Shown here: positions 34,599-58,785 of the stretch, piece after piece
Layout: every line of letters begins with the position of its first letter
Position numbering within the stretch: the first letter of the stretch is position 1
Origin: Escherichia coli
Lineage (GTDB): Bacteria; Pseudomonadota; Gammaproteobacteria; Enterobacterales; Enterobacteriaceae
Direction: 5' to 3' (one strand)
DNA: 64,000 bases
Assembly (NCBI RefSeq): GCF_022846255.1
Contig: NZ_AP025682.1
Translations under genes and position numbers: made by a program
The notes under the pieces: generated by a model
What the model was told of the DNA's origin: nothing
The model's database searches: none
What the model saw: only the letters and a program-made list of their open reading frames with translations

Positions 34599-35555
34599 TC
34601 AATACCCCATATTTTTCTTCTTCTCTAACTCTTCTTTTGCGGTATCAGGCAGATAAAGGGTGGATTTGGTCAGCGTTAGCTTTTCAGGCATGGTGCCGTC
34701 TTTTTTGTATTTCTCCAGCGCGTCGAAAGCAGGACCTGCCATGTTCGGCGTCAGTTCAACGCTGGCGTTCGCTTCGCCATCAATCATCGCTTTGTAGATG
34801 TCCGGCACGCCGTCGATAGAGCCTGTCAGGATATCTTTGCCCGGTTTCAGGCCCGCTTCTTTAATTGCCTGAATTGCACCAATCACCATGTCATCGTTAT
34901 GGGCGTAAACCATGCAGATGTTTTTGCCGTTGTTTTCCGCTTTGATAAAGCTCTCCATCACTTCTTTGCCTTTGCTGCGGGTGAAGTCACCTGACTGCGA
35001 GCGGATAATTTTGATATTTGGCGCATTCTTTATGGCTTCGGCAAAGCCTTTCTTACGGTCAATGGCGACGCTGGCCCCAACGGTGCCCTGTAACTCAACC
35101 ACGTTACATGGTTTGCCGTTAACCTCTTTCACCAGCCAGTCACCGATCAACTTACCTTCGAGGATGTTGTCGGCAGTAACGGTGGTCATATAGAGAGATT
35201 TGTCTTTCACATCGATGGAACGGTCAAGCAAGAAGACCGGGATTTCGGCATCTTTCGCCTCTTTTAATACCGGTTCCCAACCCGTCGCCACCACCGGAGC
35301 GATAAAGATCGCATCCACCCCTTGTGCGACGAAGGAACGTACCGCTTTAATCTGGTTTTCCTGCTTTTGCTGACCATCGGCAATTTTCAGTGTGATACCG
35401 CGTTTTTCGGCTTCACTTTTCGCCACATTGGTTTCTGCGGCGCGCCAGCCGGATTCCGATCCGACCTGCGAAAATCCTACGGTTAATGGAGCGGCCAACG
35501 CCATAGACGACATGGCTGCCGAGACTGCAGAGACTACAAGTAAGCGTTTCCACAT
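34599..35555 (-). CDS. ytfQ: Periplasmic galactofuranose-binding protein
   Basis: 318-aa ORF with signal peptide (MWKRLLVVSAVSAAMSSMALA) and periplasmic-binding-protein fold signature. Confidence 0.92.
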   Translation of the reverse strand: MWKRLLVVSAVSAAMSSMALAAPLTVGFSQVGSESGWRAAETNVAKSEAEKRGITLKIADGQQKQENQIKAVRSFVAQGVDAIFIAPVVATGWEPVLKEAKDAEIPVFLLDRSIDVKDKSLYMTTVTADNILEGKLIGDWLVKEVNGKPCNVVELQGTVGASVAIDRKKGFAEAIKNAPNIKIIRSQSGDFTRSKGKEVMESFIKAENNGKNICMVYAHNDDMVIGAIQAIKEAGLKPGKDILTGSIDGVPDIYKAMIDGEANASVELTPNMAGPAFDALEKYKKDGTMPEKLTLTKSTLYLPDTAKEELEKKKNMGY

Positions 35556-35625
35556 AGGGTTGTCCTCGTCGGGGTAATTATTATTGGTGAAAAGATGTTC
35601 GCGAAAAAACTATAGACAATTCGTT

Positions 35626-35646
35626 ATGTAACGGATTGCGTTACAT
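35626..35646. promoter_or_regulatory. Palindromic candidate operator in ytfQ/ppa divergent region
   Basis: ATGTAACG-gattg-CGTTACAT (8-bp perfect arms) ~70 bp upstream of ytfQ start. Confidence 0.4.
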
Positions 35647-35864
35647 CACACTTCAAAAAAGTAAATAAAACGTTAATCACAAGTTTGTAATCGCTTTCAT
35701 CTCACTATGAAAAATGCGGCTACGGTTATGGATTTTCCTGCTCTGTATACCGTCTTAAAACTGGCGAAAAAGGAAAATGAAGACGAAAACAAGCGAAGAC
35801 ATTCGGCGCGAGTTGGCTATAATACTCGGCACTTGTTTGCCACATATTTTTAAAGGAAACAGAC

Positions 35865-36395
35865 ATGAGCTTACTCAACGTCCCTGCGGGTAAAGATCTG
35901 CCGGAAGACATCTACGTTGTTATTGAGATCCCGGCTAACGCAGATCCGATCAAATACGAAATCGACAAAGAGAGCGGCGCACTGTTCGTTGACCGCTTCA
36001 TGTCCACCGCGATGTTCTATCCGTGCAACTACGGTTACATCAACCACACTCTGTCTCTGGACGGTGACCCGGTTGACGTACTGGTCCCGACTCCGTACCC
36101 GCTGCAGCCGGGTTCTGTGATCCGCTGCCGTCCGGTTGGCGTACTGAAAATGACCGACGAAGCCGGTGAAGATGCGAAACTGATTGCTGTTCCGCACACC
36201 AAGCTGAGCAAAGAATACGATCACATTAAAGACGTTAACGATCTGCCAGAGCTGCTGAAAGCGCAAATCGCTCACTTCTTCGAGCACTACAAAGACCTCG
36301 AAAAAGGCAAGTGGGTTAAAGTTGAAGGTTGGGAAAACGCAGAAGCCGCTAAAGCTGAAATCGTTGCTTCCTTCGAGCGCGCCAAGAATAAATAA
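35865..36395 (+). CDS. ppa: Inorganic pyrophosphatase
   Basis: 176-aa [26 protein letters not shown]... Confidence 0.96.
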
Positions 36396-53138: not shown

Positions 53139-53245
53139 CACGCTGGCAGTGAGTTAAATAAGCCTCTGCTACGTAAGGGTTATAGCTTTTGCCTTAAAGA
53201 TGCATTTAAAATGCATCTTATCTTATTAAGAATGAGGTATCAGCT

Positions 53246-53908
53246 ATGGCTTATCGCGACCAACCTTTAGGTGAACTGGCGCTCTCTATTCCTCGCGCTT
53301 CGGCTCTGTTTCGTAAATATGATATGGATTACTGCTGTGGCGGTAAGCAGACGCTGGCGCGCGCGGCGGCACGTAAAGAACTGGATGTTGACGTCATTGA
53401 AGCCGAACTGGCAAAGCTTGCTGAACAACCGATTGAGAAAGACTGGCGTAGCGCCCCGCTGGCGGAAATCATCGACCACATTATTGTGCGCTATCACGAT
53501 CGCCATCGCGAGCAGCTGCCGGAGCTGATCCTGCAAGCGACTAAAGTCGAGCGCGTTCACGCCGACAAACCAAGTGTGCCAAAAGGGCTGACAAAATACC
53601 TGACTATGCTGCATGAAGAGCTTTCCAGCCACATGATGAAAGAAGAGCAAATTCTCTTCCCGATGATTAAACAAGGCATGGGCAGCCAGGCAATGGGGCC
53701 AATCAGCGTAATGGAAAGCGAGCACGATGAAGCGGGCGAACTGCTGGAAGTGATCAAACACACCACCAATAACGTCACACCGCCGCCGGAAGCCTGCACC
53801 ACCTGGAAAGCGATGTATAACGGCATTAATGAACTGATTGATGACCTGATGGAGCACATCAGTCTGGAAAACAATGTACTATTCCCGCGCGCGCTGGCGG
53901 GTGAGTGA
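53246..53908 (+). CDS. ytfE: Iron-sulfur cluster repair di-iron protein YtfE (RIC)
   Basis: 220-aa ORF with hemerythrin-like His/Glu motifs. Confidence 0.93.
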
Positions 53909-57993: not shown

Positions 57994-58785
57994 ATGAAAT
58001 CCACTCGTCCTGTTGCCGTGATTACCGGAGCCGCACGTGGTATTGGAAAGGGCTGTGCGCTGGAGCTTGCGCGTGGCGGATTTAATCTGCTGATTAATGA
58101 TCGTCCGGATGCGGATAGCGTAGAAAAATTACATGCCACACAACAAGAATGTCTGGCGGAAGGCGTGGAAGTGATTTGCTTCCCTGCTGATGTGGGCGAT
58201 CTCTCCCTGCATGAAGAGATGCTCGACGCAGCGCAAAACCAGTGGGGACGTCTGGACTGCCTGCTCAACAACGCAGGCATTTCAGTGAAAAAACGCGGTG
58301 ACCTTCTCGACCTCGAACCAGACAGCTTCGACCAAAATATTGCCATTAACACCCGCGCACCGTTCTTCCTTGCTCAGGCATTCAGTAAGCGCTTACTGGC
58401 ACAGCCGAAACCGGAAGCAGAACTGCCGCACCGCTCGATTATTTTCGTCAGTTCCATCAACGCCATCATGCTGGCGATGAATCGCGGCGAATATACCATT
58501 GCCAAAACTGCCGTCTCTGCCGCTGCTCGTCTGTTTGCTGCTCGCCTTTGTAATGAACAAATTGGCGTATATGAAGTGCGTCCTGGTCTCATCAAAACCG
58601 ATATGACTATTCCGGCAACGGCCTATTACGACGAACTGATTGCCAAAGGTCTGGTGCCGTGGGGACGTTGGGGTTATCCGGCTGATATTGCTTCCACTGT
58701 CCGCGCGATGGCGGAAGGTAAACTGATTTACACCTGTGGTCAGGCGGTCGCCATCGACGGCGGCTTAAGTATGCCGCGCTTCTGA
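57994..58785 (+). CDS. Short-chain dehydrogenase/reductase (SDR) family oxidoreductase
   Basis: 263-aa ORF; TGAARGIG cofactor motif and YxxxK catalytic motif (YTIAK). Confidence 0.85.
   Translation: MKSTRPVAVITGAARGIGKGCALELARGGFNLLINDRPDADSVEKLHATQQECLAEGVEVICFPADVGDLSLHEEMLDAAQNQWGRLDCLLNNAGISVKKRGDLLDLEPDSFDQNIAINTRAPFFLAQAFSKRLLAQPKPEAELPHRSIIFVSSINAIMLAMNRGEYTIAKTAVSAAARLFAARLCNEQIGVYEVRPGLIKTDMTIPATAYYDELIAKGLVPWGRWGYPADIASTVRAMAEGKLIYTCGQAVAIDGGLSMPRF

Follow-up and report, generated by a model that had tools for sequence, protein, structure and literature searches.

An inverted repeat conserved in the core promoter of the ytfQRT-yjfF operon is probably an extra operator overlapping a predicted CRP site

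The region between the divergent genes ytfQ and ppa of Escherichia coli raises the question of what, if anything, reads the inverted repeat that lies a short distance in front of ytfQ. No sugar importer of E. coli other than the one encoded by the ytfQRT-yjfF operon is known to be specific for furanoses, and the promoter of this operon already integrates arabinose (through AraC), galactose (through GalR/GalS) and cAMP (through CRP). A deeply conserved extra operator at this position would mean that the circuit of a model regulon, as currently drawn, lacks one of its inputs. Here we analyse the repeat in the context of the window, by which we mean the whole 64-kb stretch of E. coli DNA under study, and in the promoters of related species. 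From this analysis the palindrome is best read as a transcription-factor operator and not as a new kind of element. The features from which the argument starts are the following.

35626-35646, no strand: the palindrome, ATGTAACG-GATTG-CGTTACAT; the full 21-mer is ATGTAACGGATTGCGTTACAT
35626-35632 and 35640-35646: the arms of the conserved form of the palindrome, ATGTAAC-N7-GTTACAT, with the variable centre at 35633-35639
34599-35555, minus strand: ytfQ, 318 aa, galactofuranose/arabinofuranose-binding protein, first gene of ytfQRT-yjfF
35865-36395, plus strand: ppa, the divergent neighbour of ytfQ

An earlier note on this DNA had described a perfect palindrome with 8-bp arms, placed about 70 bp before the ytfQ start in the ytfQ/ppa divergent region. 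Direct reading of the window sequence confirmed the perfect 8-bp arms and the 5-bp spacer at 35626-35646, and the distance from the ytfQ ATG to the proximal edge of the palindrome was measured as 71 bp. The gene names also held: a 421-bp query around the palindrome found matches in 5,425 of 5,426 complete E. coli genomes, and both ytfQ and ppa agree with the RefSeq annotation of 5,425 E. coli genomes. By itself, an 8-bp-arm palindrome is weak evidence. Over the whole window, a count of the distinct inverted repeats that are perfect, have arms of 8 bp or longer and a spacer of 0-12 bp gave 24, compared with 10.2 +/- 3.4 in shuffled sequences; many of the 24 real repeats are terminator-like, and the number of such repeats expected in the 309-bp ytfQ/ppa intergenic region is 0.06. 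The palindrome is thus significant because it is conserved across species, not because it is palindromic.

Conservation was assessed in 80 loci encoding YtfQ relatives, with one genome per species. The exact pattern ATGTAAC-N7-GTTACAT occurs in 21 of these 80 loci, as a single copy in each and always upstream of ytfQ, at a distance from the ATG of 87-92 bp in 20 loci and of about 200 bp in the remaining one (L013). The carriers comprise Escherichia, Citrobacter, Enterobacter, Pseudocitrobacter, Superficieibacter, Phytobacter, Mangrovibacter, one Pluralibacter species and several MAGs; among the fetched loci, the palindrome is absent from the more distant Pantoea, Erwinia, Serratia, Pectobacterium, Yersinia, Aeromonas and Vibrio. 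Using an ungapped alignment of 24 distinct sequences, we counted non-consensus cells in 1/336 for the arms, 35/168 for the 7-bp centre and 67/144 for the six 3' flank bases; by columns, 1/14 varies in the arms and 11/13 in the centre and 3' flank (Fisher p = 7e-5). The eighth pair of the E. coli palindrome is G-C in 12 sequences, G-T in seven (among them a second E. coli, L001) and unpaired in five. This pair is not conserved, and therefore the functional unit consists of 7-bp arms around a 7-bp centre (7-N7-7). The consensus of the centre is [G/T]CA[A/T/G][T/C]NN, in which the CA is both invariant and asymmetric. The likeness of the half-site to GalR/GalS-type operators, which the earlier note had pointed out, is real, but the hexamer quoted for it, GTAACG, includes a non-conserved base and has to be replaced by the conserved unit ATGTAAC. 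A natural exception is Pluralibacter gergoviae, in which both arms have been lost while TGTGA..CA, TATAG and both GalR operators are kept. On this evidence the palindrome is a genuine and strongly selected element.

Read in the ytfQ sense, the intergenic region presents, in order, the AraC half-sites, an upstream GalR operator (O-up), an A/T-rich stretch, TGTGA with the palindrome, the block TTGTCTATAG, the Shine-Dalgarno sequence and a downstream GalR operator (O-down). The individual elements are as follows.

35706-35743, minus strand: AraC-type direct half-sites, 21 bp apart, GAGCAGGAAAATCCATA (35743->35727) and TAGCCGCATTTTTCATA (35722->35706)
35685-35700, minus strand: O-up, canonical GalR/GalS-type operator, ATGAAAGCGATTACAA, listed in Table S1 of Qian et al. 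2016
35635-35650, minus strand: predicted class II CRP core, TGTGA-tgtaac-GCAAT, centre 35642.5, about -40.5 to -41.5
35609-35614, minus strand: predicted -10 hexamer, TATAGT, within the invariant block TTGTCTATAG
35538-35553, minus strand: O-down, canonical GalR operator, GTGGAAACGCTTACTT, conserved, overlapping ytfQ codons 1-6

The predicted -10 hexamer goes with a predicted ytfQ transcription start near 35602, which puts the centre of the palindrome (35636) at about -34. Directly upstream, the predicted CRP core overlaps the left, promoter-distal arm, and its TGTGA adjoins the palindrome. Set against the consensus TGTGA-N6-TCACA, the left half of this predicted site is a 5/5 match and invariant, and the right half, GCAAT, matches at 2/5 but has an invariant CA; the CRP site of deoP2, TGTGATGTGTATCGAA, likewise combines a perfect left half with a weak right half. 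The distance from the predicted CRP centre to the predicted -10 hexamer is 28.5 bp. We infer a class II CRP site at about -41.5 from TGTGA-N6-nCAnn and a -10 hexamer from TATAGT. The CRP assignment is favoured by the invariance of TGTGA and CA, by the retention of both in P. gergoviae and by the response to loss of cAMP, with ytfQ down 3.6x and ytfR down 5.2x in a delta-cya strain. A simple promoter scan called no minus-strand promoter at ytfQ, because no -35 hexamer is present; a missing -35 hexamer is usual for class II CRP-dependent promoters. Two other assignments of the same letters were rejected. CRP cannot occupy the palindrome itself, as TGTAA-N9-TTACA is wrongly spaced and only the abutting TGTGA-N6-GCAAT fits, and GTTACA cannot serve as a -35 element, as it lies only 11-12 bp from the -10 hexamer.

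The spacing between these elements shows to which of them the palindrome belongs. From the palindrome centre to TATAG, the distance is 21.0 bp in 22/22 palindrome-carrying sequences. Across species, O-up is 45.5, 56.5 or 143.5-155.5 bp away from the palindrome, and the ATG is 77 to 191 bp away. Because only the first of these spacings stays fixed, the palindrome belongs to a core-promoter module made up of TGTGA, the palindrome and TATAGT; it is part of neither the upstream AraC/GalR module nor the translation start.

In the GalR ChIP-chip data of Qian et al. 2016 (Tables 3 and 4), the ppa/ytfQ peak has a ratio of 22, the third highest, and was validated by ChIP-qPCR; O-down is the motif assigned to it. 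The peak covers the ppa/ytfQ intergenic region, and its resolution is too coarse to separate the palindrome, O-up and O-down. The palindrome is not among the 165 GalR operators of Qian et al. 2016, and it was rejected as the published GalR site, since the ChIP motif is at 35538-35553 and the second predicted operator at 35685-35700. The ytfQ-GalR link accordingly does not rest on the palindrome, because O-up and O-down are both in that set, and the palindrome is physically separate from both canonical GalR operators as well as from the AraC repeats. The earlier note had mentioned neither these two operators nor the overlap of the palindrome with a predicted CRP half-site and the -35 position of the core promoter; its view that the cognate regulator is unclear is upheld.

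O-up conforms to the pattern xTGxAAxCGxTTACA in every species. Centre to centre, O-up and O-down are 147 bp apart in the window, the same distance as obtained from Table S1 of Qian et al. 2016, and the arrangement resembles the looping pair OE/OI of gal, with the promoter inside the loop. In Escherichia, Citrobacter and Enterobacter the distance between the two GalR operators is 146-148 bp, or 13.9-14.1 helical turns; Pluralibacter has 132-133 bp and the genera with an insertion have 231-246 bp, so that phasing is only roughly kept. This insertion, of about 90-100 bp (~87-99 bp) and poorly conserved, separates the AraC/GalR module from the CRP/palindrome module in about half of the genera; its carriers (L005, L006, L009-L015, L017, L019 and L053) have it between O-up and the TTAAC block. 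At the other end, O-down overlaps codons 1-6 of ytfQ, and therefore operator sequence and signal-peptide coding constrain each other. The gene starts with ATGTGG, that is, with an AUGUG start (window 35553-35555 and downstream), and YtfQ is listed as the most abundant AUGUG-starting protein of E. coli (PMC9841429).

According to the literature, AraC regulates ytfQ and the operon is arabinose-induced. The gap between the proximal AraC half-site (35706-35722) and O-up is 5 bp and invariant in 24/24 enterobacterial sequences, and this spacing is kept even where ~90 bp are inserted before the core promoter. Such fixed spacing suggests either direct AraC/GalR interplay, in the form of competition or anti-repression, or a second AraC-dependent promoter under the operator. 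Further out, in Serratia, Pectobacterium, Brenneria, Yersinia, Aeromonas and Vibrio (L020-L040), the ytfQ promoter is laid out differently: a CRP-like site of the form TGTGA-N4-GCTCAT comes soon after the AraC-type repeats, the palindrome is absent and GalR operators are mostly missing. The difference suggests that the Enterobacteriaceae rewired ytfQ control from arabinose only to arabinose plus galactose.

Taken on its sequence features, the palindrome is likely to be an operator for a dimeric, sequence-specific DNA-binding protein within the ytfQ core promoter, for which the candidate binders can only be ranked. Frozen arms around a drifting centre are the signature of base-specific protein-DNA contact, with the reservation that some of the conservation of the left arm could come from the overlapping CRP site. 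The palindrome would occupy about -44 to -24, the stretch needed by CRP and sigma-70 region 4; the distal arm would double as the spacer of the CRP site and the proximal arm would fill -30 to -24. A protein bound there would block CRP-dependent activation and exclude CRP and RNA polymerase, thus acting as a repressor or anti-activator, and would constitute a fourth regulatory input besides CRP, AraC and GalR/GalS. In our ranking of binders, first place goes to a factor so far unconnected with ytfQ, such as a winged-helix dimer, followed by GalR/GalS on a split operator and then by CytR. The narrower proposal, namely that the palindrome is either the operator of an unrecognised fourth regulator or a fixed split operator of the LacI family (GalR/GalS/CytR), with half-sites on opposite faces and positioned over a class II CRP site, is put forward only tentatively, and the split LacI-family operator has a modest chance at ytfQ.

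Two accounts dispense with a separate DNA-binding factor. The conserved block could be an extended CRP site plus core promoter, with the dyad symmetry incidental. TGTGA adjoins the left arm, which CRP would cover, the invariant and asymmetric CA of the centre is as expected for a CRP right half, and the delta-cya result makes ytfQ cAMP-dependent. However, CRP leaves its 6-bp spacer unconstrained, whereas at ytfQ this spacer is the invariant TGTAAC, and GTTACAT at -30 to -24 is invariant although it lies within the promoter spacer, where CRP imposes no constraint and where, 10 bp from the -10 hexamer, it cannot be a -35 element. CRP and RNA polymerase do not normally constrain the sequence of the CRP spacer or of the -30 to -24 segment, so that another reader is needed to explain why they are invariant. 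Moreover, both arms have gone together in P. gergoviae, where the CRP half-site, the CA and the -10 hexamer persist, from which it follows that the arms are a separable unit; we therefore hold incidental symmetry to be quite improbable. Even less probable, to the point that we give it very little credit, is an RNA hairpin in the 5' leader, according to which an AraC-dependent promoter, active immediately below the AraC repeats, would transcribe the palindrome and its 8-bp stem would affect stability, termination or translation. The AraC repeats are indeed ~60 bp upstream and point toward ytfQ, in an operon that responds to arabinose, and the palindrome strand folds to -9.2 kcal/mol, although with z = -2.1 this is only marginally better than shuffled sequences. 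Against a hairpin, the 24 sequences contain no compensatory changes and six of the eight pairs never vary, so that it is unsupported for want of covariation; the eighth pair is not maintained, being broken in five sequences and a wobble in seven, and the sole arm substitution (in L030) breaks a pair. Furthermore, there is no U-tract, the stem is A/U-rich and weak, and the spacing of the palindrome is tied to the -10 hexamer and not to the ATG or the Shine-Dalgarno sequence.

If an operator is the better reading, members of the LacI family have to be weighed as its binder. A GalR/GalS dimer could hold the outer half-sites 5 bp further apart than usual by means of flexible headpieces, possibly looping with both flanking operators, which would place the repressor right over the CRP and -35 region. 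Both arms, ATGTAAC, carry the outer recognition bases T2, G3, A5 and A6 of the consensus GTGNAANC, and this heptamer also forms the left half of genuine operators, namely that of mglB, ATGTAACCGCTTTCA (ATGTAACCGC...), and the O-up of L017, ATGTAACCGTTTCCAT. To this can be added the strength of ytfQ as a GalR ChIP target and the precedent of split half-sites bound by members of the LacI/GalR family, CcpA at cre-var (TGTAAA-Yx-TTTACA) and CytR. The comparison with GalR/GalS motifs breaks down at the centre: the 16-bp dyad with its centre between positions 8 and 9 and its family-defining central C.G is missing, and no C.G is conserved in the palindrome centre. The earlier note had already remarked that a length of 21 bp does not suit a 16-bp LacI-family operator, and this is borne out, the arms being 7 bp apart and not 2; the 5 extra bp place the half-sites on opposite helix faces. 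Among 1,303 LacI-family motifs, 1,251 are palindromes of even length; the few of odd length are longer by a single base and not by five. In the palindrome, nothing varies at arm positions 1 and 7, which are 'N' or variable in the canonical GalR operators of the same species; P. gergoviae has dropped the palindrome and kept both canonical operators, and the palindrome is missing from the 165-operator list. On this balance GalR/GalS binding is unlikely, though it deserves more weight than the proposal of CytR, a LacI-family anti-activator with a flexible linker that would bind both arms at or over the CRP site and block CRP activation. Each arm matches the SELEX octamers AATGYAAC / GTTRCATT (Sernova & Gelfand) at 7/8 positions, among them the inner C/G and outer A/T that never vary. 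The half-sites of CytR may lie anywhere from 0 to ~3 helical turns apart, CytR never acts without CRP, and the right arm begins 2 nt past the CRP core, in keeping with a rule of '5 nt or less'. Nonetheless, a TGCAA core is present in all four natural K-12 operators of CytR that were inspected (cdd, deoP2, udp and nupG), whereas the ytfQ arms read TGTAA in every species. The palindrome also departs from the spacing rule for CytR (4-5 bp or less, or about one turn, with flanking CRP sites), its 7-bp spacer being neither <5 bp nor about one helical turn, and there is one CRP site only, with the left arm inside it and not between two such sites. As ytfQ is, in addition, absent from the descriptions of the CytR regulon found in the literature, we consider CytR an improbable binder.

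Beyond these named regulators, we looked for other factors that might occupy the palindrome as an operator. A literature search for the motif text returned only PadR (ATGT-N8-ACAT), UmuDAb and HypR. None of the 34 y-gene transcription factors validated in a ChIP-exo survey has a peak on the palindrome (NC_000913.2 4447894-4447914; NC_000913.3 4449871-4449891). The nearest ChIP-exo peaks, in coordinates converted from NC_000913.2, are those of YfeC inside ytfQ (~35391-35423, about 130-165 bp after the ATG) and of the LacI-family protein YcjW inside ppa (~36176-36202); YcjW also has a ChIP-exo peak on GalR-like operators at thiP. No regulator gene is found beside ytfQ, where the upstream neighbour is always ppa. 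The boxes known for OmpR, TyrR, UvrY/GacA, HexR, LexA, NagC/Mlc, ArcA, AcrR and LysR-type regulators differ from the palindrome in spacing, orientation or sequence. The known Rrf2 proteins of E. coli, IscR and NsrR, presumably recognise sequences unlike the palindrome, which does not match the known motifs of Rrf2-type (IscR/NsrR) operators. The window itself contains a perfect 11-1-11 palindrome at 53197-53219, AAGATGCATTT-A-AAATGCATCTT, 27 bp upstream of a 220-aa ORF (53246-53908), which we take to be the NsrR operator of ytfE (ric); this NsrR-type site differs from the ytfQ palindrome in both half-site and register. A further perfect palindrome, of 16 bp, CG-centred and with the shape of a LacI-family operator (CAGTAAGCGCTTACTG, 58383-58398), lies inside a 263-aa ORF (57994-58785) and may be a chance or intragenic site.

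By chance, about 0.7 matches to ATGTAAC-N7-GTTACAT with up to 1 mismatch are to be expected in 4.6 Mb. With the same mismatch allowed, no second copy of the motif, such as would define a regulon, was found in the 64-kb window, in 200 kb of K-12 that included the gal, mgl, cdd, deo, udp, nupG and galP promoters, or in the 80 species loci. A metagenome motif scan gave at least 120 loci; among the matches listed, six are ytfQ promoters and the rest are mostly unrelated. Two sets of these metagenome sequences are worth recording in their own right. The sequence AACATGTAACGTAnTACGTTACATGTT, a 27-bp near-perfect palindrome, recurs in high-GC metagenome contigs (L086:6533, L153:7432, L155:11034, L156:5509 and L192:1962); among the matches listed, its gene neighbourhoods differ and show no adjacent regulator, and it says nothing about E. 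coli. Probably it represents either an operator bound by a global regulator or a repeat dispersed in some clade. In L117:11757-11815, ATGTAACATACGGTGTTACAT occurs twice in identical form, 38 bp apart, and resembles a tandem operator pair.

Should the palindrome prove to be the operator of a fourth regulator or a split operator, it would represent a new regulator or a new binding mode in a well-studied E. coli sugar regulon. The identity of the binder would reveal either the signal that vetoes furanose uptake or non-canonical spacing by the LacI/GalR family in enterobacteria, and in the case of CytR furanose transport would become tied to the nucleoside regulon.

Several known systems share part of the design that we propose for ytfQ. 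The operators of the gal regulon (16 bp, GTGNAANC.GNTTNCAC) have an outer heptamer identical to the arm, ATGTAAC, and the ytfQ promoter is GalR-bound in vivo; unlike these operators, the palindrome has half-sites 7 bp apart instead of 2 and lacks the central CG. The cre-var sites of CcpA in Gram-positive bacteria likewise consist of inverted LacI/GalR-type hexamers around a non-conserved spacer that is longer than the canonical 2-4 bp, but they belong to another organism and protein, and their spacers vary between sites, whereas that of the palindrome is fixed at 7. The palindrome and the operators of CytR and cAMP-CRP both have inverted, octamer-like repeats of non-standard spacing beside a CRP site (at ytfQ a predicted one) at about -41, and at both a repressor would be expected to neutralise CRP; here the palindrome differs in its TGTAA core, its 7-bp spacer and its single CRP site, which overlaps one arm.

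Outside the LacI family, the operator of HypR, a homodimeric repressor of the Rrf2 family in S. aureus, has been verified by EMSA as TAATTGTAACTA-N3-CAGTTACAATTA. It has the identical core and register, TGTAAC-N7-GTTACA, and also overlaps core promoter elements, so that TGTAAC-N7-GTTACA is a proven binding mode for a winged-helix homodimer; HypR is staphylococcal and the palindrome enterobacterial. In its overall layout, finally, the ytfQ promoter resembles that of araFGH, at which, as work by Hendrickson and colleagues from 1990 is said to have established, AraC binds upstream and CRP next to RNA polymerase. In both operons, which encode sugar ABC transporters, a CRP site (predicted in the case of ytfQ) lies close to the promoter and AraC repeats lie further upstream, and ytfQ differs from araFGH in having, in addition, two GalR operators and the palindrome on its CRP/-35 region.
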